A program made the translations under genes and the position numbers. From sequence record LR877332: DNA of 64,000 nt, one strand, 5' to 3'. Shown here piece by piece: positions 18,902-37,716 of this stretch. A model generated the notes under the pieces. The model searched no databases. It worked only from the letters and a program-made list of their open reading frames with translations, and had not been told where the DNA came from. The DNA is from Shigella phage vB_SsoM_JK08. The number at the start of each line of letters is the position of its first letter. The stretch's first letter is position 1.

Positions 18902-19426
18902 TGCGAGTACCGTCTTTAACCGTTCTTCAAACTTCCGAAGAGTATTCTGGCGTTCAGCTCTTTGCTTTTTGTAAGTTTCAATACGCTCTGAAATGAGAGT
19001 GTATCGTTCATTTACTGATTCTTTCATAAAATCAGGAATTTCACGAGAAGCTTTAATCTCATCAAATTTATCAATAACAGCTTGCTCTTCAGCAATTAAG
19101 TTATCATACATCAAAATATCTTTCTTGATGAACTCAATATCTTCTTGAGTTACACGAGATAACTTAGATGCTTTATCCTTTTTGTACTGTTCGTTAGTAT
19201 CACGAGACCAGTGTAATGTACGATTTTTATTCGTATTCTTGTAAATTTCTACAATACCAATCTCATCAATAATAACGATCCAATTCCAACGGGATTTGTA
19301 AATTTGTCCTCCATCAACCGTGATTTCACCACCGATTGAGACATCATTAAAGAACTTGCTTTGAGCTTCAGATTTAAATTTACCATCATTGTAGTTTACC
19401 AAGTTGAAAATATCTTTAGCATTCAT
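18899..19426 (-). CDS. hypothetical protein
   Basis: 175-aa ORF. Confidence 0.55.
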   Translation of the reverse strand: MNAKDIFNLVNYNDGKFKSEAQSKFFNDVSIGGEITVDGGQIYKSRWNWIVIIDEIGIVEIYKNTNKNRTLHWSRDTNEQYKKDKASKLSRVTQEDIEFIKKDILMYDNLIAEEQAVIDKFDEIKASREIPDFMKESVNERYTLISERIETYKKQRAERQNTLRKFEERLKTVLA

Positions 19427-19453
19427 TTTTGTTCCTCCGTAGTTGATAGTTGT

Positions 19454-19482
19454 ATAGTACCACAGAGGAACAGTCTTGTAAA
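19454..19482 (-). promoter_or_regulatory. sigma70-type early promoter (-35 GTTTACA, -10 TGgTACTAT)
   Basis: RC of 19477-19482 = TTTACA, 17-nt spacer, RC of 19454-19459 = TACTAT. Confidence 0.5.
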
Positions 19483-19485
19483 CAA

Positions 19486-19800
19486 CTAAAAGAAACTTCT
19501 TTCACAATTTTTTCCACTGAACCACGCGCTCACTGCTTTCTTAGTCTCAGGAGCAGTGTTATCCATAAACCATTCAAAGGCAGCCTTTTTATGATTCTGG
19601 AGGGCTTCTCGGGCTTTAATCTGCTCACGGTCTATTAACACTAACATATGAGCCTTTCTTGTCACCAGGGGCTTCTTATGATTTTTTGAATACTCCCAAT
19701 CATTTGTCCATCGCATCGTTGTTGCGAATTGAAGTACAGCTTCCTTAATCTTAGTTTCGTAAATTTCACGAGCCTTTGAGTATAACATCATTACCTCCAT
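19486..19800 (-). CDS. hypothetical protein
   Basis: 104-aa ORF. Confidence 0.5.
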   Translation of the reverse strand: MEVMMLYSKAREIYETKIKEAVLQFATTMRWTNDWEYSKNHKKPLVTRKAHMLVLIDREQIKAREALQNHKKAAFEWFMDNTAPETKKAVSAWFSGKNCERSFF

Positions 19801-19891
19801 TTACCAGTTTAATTCTAGTCATCTTTTTGATGGCAGTCCCATATAATCTATTTCTGAACTGCCTTTTTGTCTTAGAAGGCCTCTTATGAAT

Positions 19892-20872
19892 TTATTTCAG
19901 AAGAGTAACCGTAGCGATTTCTTCCCAACCGTTTTTGTCGGTCATAATGAAGTCAGCAAGATAAAGAGCAGTACGCAGTGAAACATTACGTAAACGGTTA
20001 ACATTGACTTTCATCCATGATAATGCTTTATAAGTTTCTTCATCAGAAAGACCGCGCTTTTGCATCATGTCGGTTGAAAGAATAACATCTTCAACCCTGA
20101 CCATAATTTCTTCATTAGTGTGAACACCCAAATCTAAATAAACTGAGCGGGACACTAATGCTTGTAAATGTGGAGCAAGTTTAGTACCACGGTCTAATTC
20201 GCGGTCAATATCAACGTTTGTGATAAAAACAATCGTTCCTTTAAATTCAAACTCACGCTCAATGCCTTTTTCTTCTAAGTAAGAAGATGCAGTGCTCCAG
20301 CAGACTTTACGGGTCTCTCCAGTGTCCAGAGCAGCTTTCAGAAGATTAAGAATGTCCATATCAGAGAAAACATCCACATCATCAATCAAAAGGACAGAAT
20401 TCTCTTCACGATTATTCCAGAGCTGCTCATAAAGACCGATACCTGAGATTTTACCATTAATGCTTTTATACTCAATGTATCCAATATCATTTGCTTTATT
20501 TAAAGCTTTATCTAAAGAATACGTTTTACCAATACCCGCCGCACCAGAGATAATTAATGAACGAATGTTTCCGTTAATAATACCATTCGTCATCATTCCC
20601 ATAACATTAAATCTTTTATTAATGCGGGTTTTCATATCTTCATATGATTCTTTAACTTCTTCAACTTTTACACCATCATATGAAATGTCTGATTTGTAAA
20701 CCCAAACACCGCGACGCTTACCGTCAATTTCAACAAAAACTTTACCATCTCCTTGTGCATCCACCGGAGCATTATCTGGGAACCATTCGCCTAAGAGCTC
20801 AAAAGTTCCAGAGATTTCTTTACCAAAGTAGATACCCTTATTGATAGTTACAGTTTTCATTTTATTCTCCAA
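19892..20872 (-). CDS. P-loop NTPase (AAA-like ATPase) with N-terminal extra domain
   Basis: 326-aa ORF; Walker A GAAGIGKT, Walker B VLLIDDVD, sensor-like FITN. Confidence 0.65.
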   Translation of the reverse strand: MENKMKTVTINKGIYFGKEISGTFELLGEWFPDNAPVDAQGDGKVFVEIDGKRRGVWVYKSDISYDGVKVEEVKESYEDMKTRINKRFNVMGMMTNGIINGNIRSLIISGAAGIGKTYSLDKALNKANDIGYIEYKSINGKISGIGLYEQLWNNREENSVLLIDDVDVFSDMDILNLLKAALDTGETRKVCWSTASSYLEEKGIEREFEFKGTIVFITNVDIDRELDRGTKLAPHLQALVSRSVYLDLGVHTNEEIMVRVEDVILSTDMMQKRGLSDEETYKALSWMKVNVNRLRNVSLRTALYLADFIMTDKNGWEEIATVTLLK

Positions 20873-20894
20873 ATCCGTATCAGTTGATAGTTGT

Positions 20895-20923
20895 ATAGTA
20901 CCATAAAGCTTTATGCTTGTAAA
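20895..20923 (-). promoter_or_regulatory. sigma70-type early promoter (-35 GTTTACA, -10 TGgTACTAT)
   Basis: RC of 20918-20923 = TTTACA, 17-nt spacer, RC of 20895-20900 = TACTAT; A-rich upstream element. Confidence 0.5.
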
Positions 20924-20945
20924 CCGTTTTGTGAAAAATTTTTGA

Positions 20946-20972
20946 AATAAAAAAGGGAGCCCGAAGGCTCCC
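20946..20972 (-). terminator. intrinsic terminator (UUCG hairpin + U-run)
   Basis: gggagcc-cgaa-ggctccc at 20955-20972 with A-run 20948-20954 on plus. Confidence 0.6.
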
Positions 20973-20974
20973 TA

Positions 20975-21988
20975 TCATTTATAATAACTTCGGTGGTTTT
21001 CAAGATAGACCTTCTCAAGGAAGTCATCCCAGAAACCCATGTCTACTTTTTGCTGCATACCGTTCTTAGAAGCTTCAGTAGATGCTGCTTCTACTTGATC
21101 GACCACATCTTCCAAAAACTCTTGAACGGTTTTAAATGGATGTTTACCCAACTTCACGTCGAGAATAAATGGAGCGTCTTGAAGTGGATAGACTAAGTCG
21201 CCAGTTTTGTAAATTTCCAATAGTTGGAGTCCACCACGGCAAGCATGACTCAAAGCTTTCCAGTCAATACCTTCATTGGCTTCGGCCTTACGAGCACGTT
21301 CACCGTATTCAGCATCTAATTTATTCAGTGACTGCTTAAGCTCAATAAGAGAAAGCGTTGTCTGATATTTACGACCCAACACTGTGTAGAACGTTTGTGG
21401 GCCTGTTTTCTCATGATTATGGAACACCCATTCACAGAATTCGTTTTCTGGAAGACGATGCTTAATATCTTCAACTTTAGTACGACGCTGCTTAATGGAA
21501 CCGTCTTCTTGGTAATCAACCCATTGCTCAGGGATTTGATTAACTACTTTCAATACATCACGCAATGCGGCCAAACGAGAACCCTTAACACCATATTTAG
21601 AAGCTTGCTTGCGGACATATCCTAAATAGGATTTCATGTTAGTCGTATAAAAACGAGAACGATTGTCTTGAATAAACTTCCATACATCAGGCAAATCTGA
21701 TTTAACCACTAGCTCAGGTGGAGTGTGAAGCATATCCAACGCTACAGTTTCACCATCTGCTGCTAATTTAAAGAAATATTTAAGACTGTATAGTTCATGG
21801 TCAATATCATCTTTAGTGTTTTTAGATGATGTGTTGTTAGTGTTTTTACTCATGTGCTCTTTGACATTTCCGATAAGAATATCGCGAGCAGGAGGAACAA
21901 AGATTTCTTTAAAATCGACATCAGATTCTGGTGTAGAAGTTCCATAAAGATGACTACCAAAATAACTTTTCATTACTGTTTTCATCAT
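20975..21988 (-). CDS. nucleotidyltransferase-fold protein (Pol-beta/minimal NTase superfamily motif)
   Basis: 337-aa ORF; N-terminal FGSHLYGTSTPESDVDF fits hG[GS]-x(9-13)-DhD; downstream VALDMLH candidate third acidic residue. Confidence 0.55.
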   Translation of the reverse strand: MMKTVMKSYFGSHLYGTSTPESDVDFKEIFVPPARDILIGNVKEHMSKNTNNTSSKNTKDDIDHELYSLKYFFKLAADGETVALDMLHTPPELVVKSDLPDVWKFIQDNRSRFYTTNMKSYLGYVRKQASKYGVKGSRLAALRDVLKVVNQIPEQWVDYQEDGSIKQRRTKVEDIKHRLPENEFCEWVFHNHEKTGPQTFYTVLGRKYQTTLSLIELKQSLNKLDAEYGERARKAEANEGIDWKALSHACRGGLQLLEIYKTGDLVYPLQDAPFILDVKLGKHPFKTVQEFLEDVVDQVEAASTEASKNGMQQKVDMGFWDDFLEKVYLENHRSYYK

Positions 21989-22446
21989 TCAGCCTTATAT
22001 TCAATAACAGGACACACTTTAGCTTTACGAGCTTTTAAAAATTCGACGATAATAGATTTCTTGGGTTGAATAGGAGGTAAACCTTTATACGCCCTATCAA
22101 TATTTTCTACATGTAAAGCATAATCCTTTTTCCATTTATAATCTTTATATTTTTCATGCAGTTGTGCAGGAATAACAAATGAACCAATAATAAGTAAAAT
22201 AAGCAAAATGGCAAGTATAAATGCTGATGGAATAAGAGTCCATAAACTACCAAAAATAAGCCATTTCTGTATGATTTCTGCACAGATAATAGTTAGACCT
22301 GCGAGTATAGTACATCCGAAAAAAGAAACGAAAAATGTAGGGATAACAATAGACCAAAAGTATGCACACAGTGTCTTAGGTCGTTTCCATTCGTCGTTAA
22401 ACAGTTTGAATAATTTATAGTGCCAAGAGTTTTCATTAATAATCAT
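21985..22446 (-). CDS. membrane protein (multi-pass)
   Basis: 153-aa ORF with 3-4 hydrophobic helices. Confidence 0.55.
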   Translation of the reverse strand: MIINENSWHYKLFKLFNDEWKRPKTLCAYFWSIVIPTFFVSFFGCTILAGLTIICAEIIQKWLIFGSLWTLIPSAFILAILLILLIIGSFVIPAQLHEKYKDYKWKKDYALHVENIDRAYKGLPPIQPKKSIIVEFLKARKAKVCPVIEYKAE

Positions 22447-22448
22447 AA

Positions 22449-22970
22449 TTATCCTTTCATTGAAGGTGTAACAGTTGTTAAATACTTAATCATAGCTTCA
22501 GCTTCTGATTTTGATAGTGAAATTTCTCCATTGTTTTGACGAATAGAAATAAAATCCGGATGACGGTCACCACCAGCTTTTAAAACACACATATAAGTAT
22601 CAGTTTCATCTTCAATATTTGAAATGATTGAAGCAGTTCCACATGAATGCGGTTTTTGATAAATCAATACAGCTTTTCTTCCGCCATTTGACTGTTCATA
22701 AACTTTTAATACATCAAACAAATCACTTCTTTTATCAATAGCTAAAATGTTATTTTCATCTTCAATGTTAAATCCTTCGGATACTTCATAAAGTGTCACC
22801 CATAAATCGCCAATATCAATAACAGCGTTCACTTTTCCATGACTTTCAAGAGCATGACAAATTTTCTTGATTTCGTCATAACTCATTTTAATAATATCAT
22901 CTCCTTGAATAAGAAAGATGTCATTTTTAAATTCAACACGAATTAAACCACTTCCACTTGAAATAAACAT
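22449..22970 (-). CDS. hypothetical protein, paralog of 22977..23534
   Basis: 173-aa ORF; C-terminus SKSEAEAMIKYLTTVTPSM resembles neighbour's TKDEAIALKTYLDSVIPTM. Confidence 0.55.
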   Translation of the reverse strand: MFISSGSGLIRVEFKNDIFLIQGDDIIKMSYDEIKKICHALESHGKVNAVIDIGDLWVTLYEVSEGFNIEDENNILAIDKRSDLFDVLKVYEQSNGGRKAVLIYQKPHSCGTASIISNIEDETDTYMCVLKAGGDRHPDFISIRQNNGEISLSKSEAEAMIKYLTTVTPSMKG

Positions 22971-36888: not shown

Positions 36889-36964
36889 TGGTCGAGGCAG
36901 TAGGGATCGAACCTACGACCCAGGACTTAGAAGGTCCTTGCTCTTCCTTCTGAGCTATGCCTCG
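36889..36964 (-). tRNA. tRNA-Arg (anticodon UCU), CCA encoded
   Basis: manual cloverleaf: acceptor cgaggca/tgcctcg, T-arm gtagg-gatcgaa-cctac, anticodon loop CUUCUAA. Confidence 0.8.
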
Positions 36965-36968
36965 TATT

Positions 36969-37043
36969 TGGCGGACGTGATAGGATTCGAACCTATAACC
37001 AATCGCTTAACAGGCGATCGCTCTGCCATTGAGCTACACATCC
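36969..37043 (-). tRNA. tRNA-Asn (anticodon GUU), CCA encoded
   Basis: manual cloverleaf with 4-bp D stem, GG in D loop, anticodon loop CUGUUAA, T loop UUCGAAU. Confidence 0.65.
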
Positions 37044-37047
37044 AAAT

Positions 37048-37134
37048 TGGTGGGGAGTGGTGGAGTCGAACCACCCGAGTCGCAATGACAATGAATTTAC
37101 AGTCCACACCGCTACCTCTACGGGATAACTCCCC
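37048..37134 (-). tRNA. tRNA-Tyr-like (anticodon GUA), long variable arm, atypical D-arm
   Basis: acceptor ggggagt/actcccc, T-arm ggtgg-agtcgaa-ccacc, anticodon loop CUGUAAA; anticodon stem has 2 G-U pairs and D-arm connector is irregular. Confidence 0.5.
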
Positions 37135-37143
37135 AAATTAATT

Positions 37144-37218
37144 TGGTGGCCCTGGGTGGAATTGAACCACCATCTGGCGATTATGAGTCGCTTGCTTGAA
37201 CCTTCCAGCTACAGGGCC
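37144..37218 (-). tRNA. tRNA with CAU anticodon (Met or Ile2)
   Basis: acceptor ggccctg/cagggcc, anticodon loop CUCAUAA. Confidence 0.75.
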
Positions 37219-37219
37219 T

Positions 37220-37295
37220 TGGTGCTGATTGACGGAATCGAACCGCCGACCTTCTCATTACAAGTGAGTTGCTCTACCTACTGAGCTAAATCAGC
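37220..37295 (-). tRNA. tRNA-Thr (anticodon UGU)
   Basis: acceptor gctgatt/aatcagc, anticodon loop CUUGUAA. Confidence 0.75.
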
Positions 37296-37300
37296 AAAAC

Positions 37301-37390
37301 TGGCGGAGGCGATAGGATTTGAACCTATGAGTCGCCGGAGCGACTGCCGGTTTTCAAGACCGGTGCATTAAACCACTCTGCCACGCCTCC
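37301..37390 (-). tRNA. tRNA-Ser (anticodon UGA), long variable arm
   Basis: acceptor ggaggcg/cgcctcc, variable stem gtcgc/gcgac, anticodon loop CUUGAAA. Confidence 0.75.
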
Positions 37391-37392
37391 AG

Positions 37393-37466
37393 TCTCCGTG
37401 GCAGGATTTGAACCTACGACATTCTGCTCCCAAAGCAGACGCTCTACCAAACTGAGCTACACGGAG
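37393..37466 (-). tRNA. tRNA-Pro (anticodon UGG), CCA not encoded
   Basis: acceptor ctccgtg/cacggag, anticodon loop UUUGGGA. Confidence 0.7.
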
Positions 37467-37476
37467 TAAATTAAAT

Positions 37477-37550
<74 letters not shown>

Positions 37551-37555
37551 AAATT

Positions 37556-37642
37556 TGGTGCGAGAAGTGGGACTCGAACCCACAAGGAAATCATTCCGCA
37601 GCATTTTAAGTGCTGTGCCTTTACCAATTTGGCCATTCTCGC
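37556..37642 (-). tRNA. tRNA-Leu (anticodon UAA), long variable arm
   Basis: acceptor gcgagaa/ttctcgc, variable stem ggaa/ttcc, anticodon loop CUUAAAA. Confidence 0.75.
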
Positions 37643-37643
37643 G

Positions 37644-37716
37644 CTGGGAATAAAGGACTCGAACCTTTGCATCCTGGAATCAAAATCCAGTGCCTTACCA
37701 ACTTGGCTAATTCCCA
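37644..37716 (-). tRNA. tRNA-Gln (anticodon UUG), CCA not encoded
   Basis: acceptor tgggaat/attccca, anticodon stem ctgga/tccag, loop UUUUGAU. Confidence 0.7.

Follow-up and report, generated by a model that had tools for sequence, protein, structure and literature searches.

Shigella phage vB_SsoM_JK08 carries, side by side, a gene for a predicted nucleotidyltransferase (NTase) and a gene for a P-loop ATPase. Do these encode the two halves of a functional module, or are they independent genes that happen to be neighbours, and on what does the NTase act? Both open reading frames (ORFs) lie within positions 19892..21988 of the 64,000-nt stretch of record LR877332 that we analysed (hereafter, the window). 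A first-pass annotation described a 337-aa ORF (20975..21988) with a GS...DxD motif and a 326-aa ORF (19892..20872) with the sequences GAAGIGKT and LLIDDVD, and proposed that the pair is a host-takeover or anti-defence module. The ORF list and the raw sequence confirm both ORFs and their motifs at these coordinates, but on the minus strand. The account that we favour, with moderate confidence, is that these are two independently transcribed early genes, one encoding NrdC.11, an RNA-repair NTase of the RlaP branch, and the other NrdC.10, an AAA+ ATPase, and that the two proteins are not obligate partners.

Identity of the locus

A 3.1-kb region around the two genes (19400..22500) shows 100% DNA identity to Escherichia phage a15 and Yersinia phage PYps35T. 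Another 486 phage records, nearly all labelled as phages of Escherichia, Shigella, Yersinia or other enterobacteria, match it at 95–99% identity. Those best matches whose taxonomy was read are assigned to Tequatrovirus, and on sequence grounds the window belongs to a phage of this genus. By the same measure, the ORFs at 20975..21988 and 19892..20872 are orthologs of T4 nrdC.11 and nrdC.10. Protein identity to T4 NrdC.11 (NP_049709) is 98.9% over the portion inside the fetched T4 stretch, and to T4 NrdC.10 (NP_049708) 99.4% over the aligned part. Gene order, strand and the neighbours nrdC.8 and nrdC.9 are the same as in T4. The JK08 locus is otherwise essentially identical to that of T4, except that the homing-endonuclease gene mobD, which lies upstream of nrdC.11 in T4, is absent at that junction, its place being taken by a gene for a 153-aa membrane protein that overlaps the nrdC.11 start. 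The locus is thus the annotated and previously interpreted T4 nrdC.10/nrdC.11 pair and no new system; COG3541 NTase and AAA matches for nrdC.11 and nrdC.10 were published in 2006 (PMC1524935).

NrdC.11 as a divergent RlaP-type nucleotidyltransferase

The features of nrdC.11 on which the analysis rests are the following:

20975..21988, minus strand: nrdC.11 ortholog, RlaP-family (NrdC.11-type) NTase of the Pol-beta superfamily, 337 aa, beginning MMKTVMKSYFGSHLYGTSTPESDVDF
21911..21961, minus strand: NTase active-site motif FGSHLYGTSTPESDVDF, with G11 S12 ... D23 x D25 (337-aa numbering)
21800..21802, minus strand: D63 (D62 in the 336-aa form), candidate third catalytic carboxylate, within KDDIDHE
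21236..21265, minus strand: helical-domain motif DWKALSHACR (family pattern DWKAx[SH]HAxR)

A second ATG, at 21985, is the nrdC.11 start in many records and yields a protein of 336 aa; both numberings are used below. The first-pass annotation had based the NTase assignment on a short motif only, and that basis has now been superseded by a profile match, a structural model and fold searches. The motif itself (hG[GS]-x9-13-DhD) is present as F10-G11-S12 ... D23-V24-D25. Its G, S and both D residues are invariant in 43 homologs of 34–54% identity, and they match the GS/DxD of canonical RlaP in an hhalign comparison. NrdC.11 scores 44.2 bits against Pfam RlaP (PF10127; gathering cutoff 23, E 2.5e-11), and PHROG 388, annotated 'nucleotidyltransferase', matches it with an E value of 8e-137. 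Given these two matches, the motif is not a chance occurrence. The PF10127 score, above the cutoff, also places the NTase in the RlaP family; CD-NTase and minimal nucleotidyltransferase (MNT) identities gained no support. The family is large: an exhaustive HMMER search with NrdC.11 returned 3424 cluster representatives at E <= 1e-3, many of them full-length proteins of ~310–350 aa with 36–58% identity.

An AlphaFold (AF2) model built on the 43-homolog alignment has a mean predicted local distance difference test (pLDDT) score of 93. It shows an N-terminal domain with the alpha/beta NTase fold, a long helix, a beta-rich insert and a C-terminal helical bundle that ends in a long helix (316–335). 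When this model was used in fold searches, the best matches were all NTases. The nearest solved structures are kanamycin nucleotidyltransferase (3c18-type) and Hailong HalB, at 9–14% identity to NrdC.11; neither shows a sequence-level relationship to NrdC.11, and their substrates and genomic contexts differ. Neither NrdC.11 nor NrdC.10, whether queried as a single sequence or as a family profile, had a meaningful match in sequence searches of the PDB.

Residues invariant in the 43-homolog alignment (336-aa numbering) are G10, S11, S21, D22, D24, N56, D62 and G78 in the N-terminal part, together with Y123, Y131, R230, K243, H247, R250, P267 and K278; D60 and D84 (D61 and D85 in 337-aa numbering) are kept in at least 90% of homologs. 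The third acidic residue expected of such an active site is best sought at D63. This residue is invariant, stands at the start of a model beta-strand (61–67) and aligns with the conserved Asp within the 'LDISGWD' sequence of a canonical RlaP, and so is our candidate for the third catalytic carboxylate, placed by invariance, strand and alignment. The hhalign comparison with canonical RlaP that underlies this assignment aligned residues 5–92 at low probability and was used only to map catalytic residues. The conserved DWKALSHACR motif of the helical domain probably lines the NTP/RNA cleft.

The biochemistry of the RlaP family comes solely from two Pseudomonas enzymes (P. fluorescens and P. aeruginosa) described in a December 2025 preprint (PMC12776372). 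These add one or two nucleoside monophosphates to an RNA 3'-OH, accept any NTP and also dATP with little NTP specificity, prefer Mn2+, and use neither DNA nor E. coli proteins as substrates (PMC12776372). Between the 5' half of a cleaved-tRNA mimic and the acceptor 3' end, they prefer the former, and they raise the aminoacylation of a ligated tRNA that lacks one anticodon-loop nucleotide; RlaP was accordingly proposed as an antidote to cut-then-trim ribotoxins such as RloC (PMC12776372). The same work explicitly assigns T4 NrdC.11 to the family, in cluster 5 of its similarity network. Iyer et al. had made the same prediction in 2021, noting that the distribution of RlaP mirrors that of RNA ligases in jumbo phages (PMC7824862). 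The RNA-repair interpretation of NrdC.11 had thus been proposed by 2021 and 2025 (PMC7824862, PMC12776372).

Canonical RlaP and NrdC.11 share Pfam membership and an NTase core with GS...DxD and a candidate third Asp. The crystal structure of the P. fluorescens enzyme (PfRlaP), as described, combines an NTase domain with a C-terminal helical domain and a closing C-terminal helix (PMC12776372). The NrdC.11 model has an NTase domain, a helical domain and a long C-terminal helix, plus the beta-rich insert; PfRlaP itself did not appear among the PDB matches. The two differ in length: canonical RlaP has ~255–260 aa and NrdC.11 ~336 aa, i.e. ~80 residues more. Judged from its sequence, then, NrdC.11 belongs to the RlaP (PF10127) branch of the Pol-beta NTases, within which it is divergent, and, with the partial Pfam and hhalign matches and the additional length, the NrdC.11 type is not simply the same enzyme as RlaP.

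RNA-repair neighbourhoods in bacteria and archaea

We scanned one genome per prokaryotic species and collected 80 loci (L161-L240) with full-length NrdC.11-type genes at 32–54% identity. Desulfobacterales, Nitrospirota, Alphaproteobacteria and some archaea are among their hosts. RNA-repair genes (RtcB, Pnkp, Hen1, Ro60 or canonical RlaP) lie within 8 kb of the NrdC.11-type gene in 35 of these 80 loci:

Canonical 255–260-aa RlaP: 26/80 loci, often immediately downstream
RtcB: 10/80 loci
Pnkp: 8/80 loci
Hen1: 7/80 loci
Ro60/TROVE: 4/80 loci

The association with RtcB, Pnkp and Hen1 is common to canonical RlaP and to the bacterial NrdC.11-type relatives. One of the loci holds a ~13-kb RNA-repair super-operon on an uncultured Nitrosospira contig (CAADGK010000054; L194:3555-16626), which encodes, in order, a Ro60/TROVE-vWA protein, RtcB, RtcA, an NrdC.11-type RlaP, canonical RlaP, Hen1, a MoxR-like AAA_5 ATPase, a DUF2201 VWA/metallopeptidase and Pnkp. 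These context counts for the NrdC.11 type are new in this analysis; they show the type embedded in the RNA repair of cellular genomes and support, by analogy, extending the RlaP function to NrdC.11-type proteins.

In about half of the 26 tandem loci, canonical RlaP follows directly downstream and overlaps the NrdC.11-type gene by a few bases. Since the two types occur in tandem, NrdC.11-type proteins are a paralogous type and not simple orthologs of canonical RlaP. The arrangement suggests a division of roles between two RlaP paralogs, of which T4-like phages keep the long type only. Because bacteria so often pair the two, one possibility is that the NrdC.11 type, as a second RlaP paralog, differs from the canonical one in specificity.

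A proposed role in tRNA repair

By analogy with the Pseudomonas enzymes and the cellular gene neighbourhoods, NrdC.11 would act on RNA and serve repair during T4 infection. Here an anticodon nuclease, with RloC as the model case, would cleave a tRNA and excise its wobble nucleotide. NrdC.11 would then refill the missing nucleotide or nucleotides on the cleaved tRNA ahead of ligation, after which the phage polynucleotide kinase and RNA ligase 1 could restore the tRNA to full length and function. RNA ligase 1 is encoded elsewhere in the genome of phage a15, whose sequence is identical across the region queried, and T4 also carries polynucleotide kinase. The anti-defence half of the first-pass proposal is therefore plausible for the NTase in the form of RNA repair against anticodon nucleases, and the 'tRNA-repair' option listed there is its likely form.

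Several observations weigh against this account. The PF10127 match covers residues 7–135 only, corresponding to profile positions 23–142 of 249. A ~60-residue beta-rich insert (~150–210) of the C-terminal half, which falls in the least conserved part of the alignment, is not described for PfRlaP. NrdC.11 falls in a sequence cluster apart from the characterised RlaP enzymes, so its substrate could differ, and the searchable literature holds no experiment on T4 NrdC.11 itself. In phages, just 1 of 158 viral loci contains an RNA-repair gene (an RtcB), and no RNA ligase recurs beside nrdC.11. Finally, T4 can lose the nrdC.11-mobD.3 block under laboratory conditions (PMC9825161), which fits an accessory role and says nothing on function.

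The 44 phage loci without nrdC.10 likewise show no recurrent RNA ligase or kinase among the neighbours of nrdC.11. Judged by reading the sequences rather than by profile search, the genes that do recur there look like variable-region genes of the NadR, NAMPT, macro-domain and thymidine-kinase types.

NrdC.10 as an AAA+ ATPase

The second gene has the following features:

19892..20860, minus strand: nrdC.10 ortholog, AAA+ ATPase, 322 aa from ATG 20860 (the 326-aa ORF 19892..20872 starts at a TTG)
20522..20545, minus strand: Walker A, GAAGIGKT (G106-T113); G106, G109, G111, K112 and T113 invariant in 34 homologs
20372..20395, minus strand: Walker B, VLLIDDVD (D160, D161); both D invariant in 34 homologs, on model strand 155–160

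From its sequence context, ATG 20860 is almost certainly the true start, because a GGAG Shine-Dalgarno sequence (20870-20867) stands eight bases ahead of it, homolog N-termini align to MKTV, and the phage a15 annotation agrees.

Conservation was read from an alignment of 34 homologs of 54–89% identity, in which N215, R238 (in SRS), R291 and R296 are also invariant. The structural model (pLDDT 89) comprises a five-stranded N-terminal beta domain (~1–62) that a linker of low confidence joins to an AAA+ core and its lid. In this model, N215 comes after the sensor-1 strand and R238 before beta5, while R296 lies in the lid. From these positions, NrdC.10 is predicted to hold the full AAA+ set: both Walker motifs, sensors 1 and 2 and a putative arginine finger (SRS). 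The protein has a genuine AAA+ fold and is a complete ATPase of this type, unclassified as to named family or clade. None of the Pfam AAA families reaches its gathering score against the protein, which belongs to PHROG 1250 (an annotation without function) and has 991 clusters at 90% identity and matches in 1311 phage records. MoxR-type ATPases (NorQ, CbbQ) and initiator/clamp-loader AAA+ proteins have in common with NrdC.10 the alpha/beta core and lid, both Walker motifs, sensors 1 and 2 and an Arg ahead of beta5, whereas the N-terminal beta domain is peculiar to NrdC.10. No VWA partner was seen among the ORFs adjoining nrdC.10, although no search aimed at VWA proteins was made.

NrdC.10-like genes of 30–44% identity also occur on IMG/VR contigs (L085-L160), in a recombination block with a UvsW-like helicase gene downstream in 51 loci and UvsY-like and UvsX-like genes upstream. 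This arrangement may be peculiar to one lineage and was not used to assign function. T4 itself is not known to share this UvsW/UvsY/UvsX gene order.

Transcription signals between the two genes

The first-pass annotation placed a terminator and an early promoter between the ORFs, and both were found again, at 20973..20954 (minus strand) and 20924..20895 (minus strand):

20954..20973, minus strand: intrinsic terminator after nrdC.11, an 8-bp GC-rich hairpin AGGGAGCC-TTCG-GGCTCCCT followed by the T-run TTTTTTATTT
20895..20924, minus strand: T4-early-type promoter for nrdC.10, GTTTAC-N14-ATGGTACTAT (consensus scan and direct reading)
21985-22446, minus strand: predicted membrane protein, 153 aa, PHROG 944, with a stop codon that overlaps the start of nrdC.11 (ATGATG)
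19486-19800, minus strand: nrdC.9 ortholog, Pfam DUF7203 (E 2e-15), PHROG 1931

On the minus strand, the terminator hairpin, with its UUCG loop, begins directly 3' of the nrdC.11 stop codon. Phage ASO78A (98% identical) carries, at the same place, independent annotations of a T4 early promoter and of a rho-independent terminator. At the other end, the overlap of the 153-aa gene's stop codon with the nrdC.11 start makes nrdC.11 the last gene of the upstream unit. As read from these signals, nrdC.11 and nrdC.10 are separate transcription units and both early genes. In ASO78A, two extra small ORFs sit between nrdC.11 and nrdC.10 (L241:1731-2140), and the terminator/promoter region is therefore an insertion hotspot.

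Identical promoter-like sites (TTTACA-17-TACTAT, with an upstream TG) occur at 19454-19482 and 20895-20923, both on the minus strand, and precede the nrdC.8 and nrdC.10 orthologs, respectively. The pairing suggests repeated early-promoter cassettes.

Module or neighbours?

If the two proteins formed a functional module, the AAA+ ATPase might remodel damaged RNA or ribonucleoprotein (RNP), or deliver it to the NTase, by analogy with the MoxR-type AAA+/VWA accessory pairs of some bacterial RNA-repair operons. We searched hidden Markov models of both families against the fetched loci and counted how often the two genes occur together:

Phage loci anchored on NrdC.11 (n = 78): NrdC.10 within 10 kb in 34, not in 44
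Phage loci anchored on NrdC.10 (n = 80): NrdC.11 within 10 kb in 4, not in 76
Bacterial/archaeal NrdC.11-type loci (n = 80): NrdC.10-like gene in 0

Where the genes are linked, NrdC.10 is always downstream of NrdC.11, in the same orientation and 0.1–3.3 kb away, and all 34 such loci come from enterobacterial or Acinetobacter T4-like phages. The 44 unlinked loci include relatives with an 82%-identical NrdC.11 (L007, L009, L039) as well as almost all loci below 50% identity. In the 161-kb genome of Aeromonas phage 25, too, the two genes are far apart: nrdC.10 lies at 149 kb, and the stretch that holds nrdC.11 has its centre near 44 kb. In a survey by Nolan et al. (2006), nrdC.10 orthologs were reported in only 3 of 6 T4-like phages, whereas domain counts for nrdC.11 are given out of 6 (PMC1524935).

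The conserved order and orientation in the 34 loci, which reach from Tequatrovirus to Acinetobacter phages (~52% identity), speak for a module, and some functional tie is thus possible. So does the Nitrosospira super-operon, which carries a MoxR-like AAA_5 ATPase and a VWA protein together with its NrdC.11-type gene; an hhalign comparison of the NrdC.10 core with that ATPase gave Prob 54% and E 1.3e-4. Both observations count against the independence of the two genes that we favour. Against a module stand the terminator and separate promoter, the genes inserted between the two in ASO78A, the unlinked arrangement in Aeromonas phage 25, and the absence of the partner from 44/78 and 76/80 phage loci. 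MoxR-like ATPases, moreover, occur in only 2/80 bacterial NrdC.11-type loci, and a NrdC.10-like gene in none; a general MoxR link was rejected on the former count.

On balance, we regard a functional module as unlikely. The narrower version, in which NrdC.10, MoxR-like in its fold, would cooperate with the NrdC.11-type RlaP as an ATP-driven RNA/RNP repair pair in enterobacterial and Acinetobacter T4-like phages, strikes us as improbable; such a pair would parallel the MoxR/VWA/Ro60 accessory genes of the Nitrosospira locus. The linkage counts and the transcription signals that separate the two genes argue that their adjacency is a gene order passed down among the T4-like phages of enterobacteria and Acinetobacter, and argue against functional coupling. 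We infer that the NrdC.10 and NrdC.11 proteins function independently. The ortholog search suggested in the first-pass annotation thus located T4 nrdC.11 and nrdC.10 and 34 linked phage loci, and the two-gene module proposed there was not supported (linkage in 34/78, 4/80 and 0/80 loci).

Other possible substrates for the nucleotidyltransferase

NrdC.11 might instead maintain or mature tRNA 3' ends, by CCA repair or by completing phage tRNAs, rather than mend anticodon-loop breaks. The characterised RlaP enzymes do label full-length tRNAs, adding 1–2 nt to any RNA 3'-OH (PMC12776372), and the window encodes 10 tRNA genes:

36889-37716, minus strand: tRNA cluster of 10 genes (Arg, Asn, Tyr, Met-type CAT, Thr, Ser, Pro, Gly, Leu, Gln)

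However, the low NTP specificity of RlaP and its preference for the 5' half of cleaved tRNA over the acceptor 3' end (PMC12776372) are not what this alternative predicts, and the bacterial NrdC.11-type genes adjoin genes for break repair (RtcB, Pnkp, Hen1), not for tRNA maturation. A dedicated role at the CCA end therefore seems to us a poor prospect, with little chance of being correct. The 10 tRNAs are in any event potential substrates or beneficiaries of phage tRNA repair.

Very improbable is an enzyme that does not act on RNA ends at all, i.e. a HalB- or CD-NTase-like synthase of signalling or decoy oligonucleotides or an MNT-like AMPylase that neutralises a host HEPN toxin, for which a weak MntA motif match (E 0.06) can be cited, but HalB likeness (14% identity) is generic NTase-fold similarity, the tested RlaP enzymes do not use E. 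coli proteins or DNA (PMC12776372), and the bacterial genomic context is RNA repair. Identity with the MntA antitoxin was not supported: the NCBIfam equivalog scores 13.2 bits against a cutoff of 60, and the match is confined to the GS..D motif. No PADLOC family matches NrdC.11 or NrdC.10 at E <= 0.1, no CD-NTase Pfam family matches, and the window ORF list shows no separate HEPN gene adjacent to nrdC.11. The nucleotide-signalling and toxin/antitoxin-like activities that the first-pass annotation had entertained for the NTase thus found no support.

Labels and host assignments in related records

In many phage records in GenBank, the orthologs of nrdC.10 and nrdC.11 are labelled 'thioredoxin', one is called 'HNH homing endonuclease' and others 'clamp loader'. 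A Pfam profile search detected no thioredoxin domain in either protein, and the label has probably been propagated from the locus name nrdC.x. A partial NrdC.10 (P0124), 100% identical over the aligned length, has been deposited under Enterococcus faecalis, and a T4-like genome with 97.5% identity is recorded as a Pseudomonas coronafaciens phage; these two records look like contamination or odd host assignment.

Implications

NrdC.10 emerges as a widespread phage AAA+ ATPase, with its 1311 phage records. For NrdC.11, the setting is an older contest: phage RNA repair has its founding example in T4, whose Pnkp and Rnl1 counter the anticodon nuclease PrrC. By also removing the wobble nucleotide, RloC-type nucleases are thought to overcome repair by Pnkp and Rnl1 (PMC2610378). 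If it is true that NrdC.11 refills the lost nucleotide, T4 would already carry the next counter-move in this arms race.

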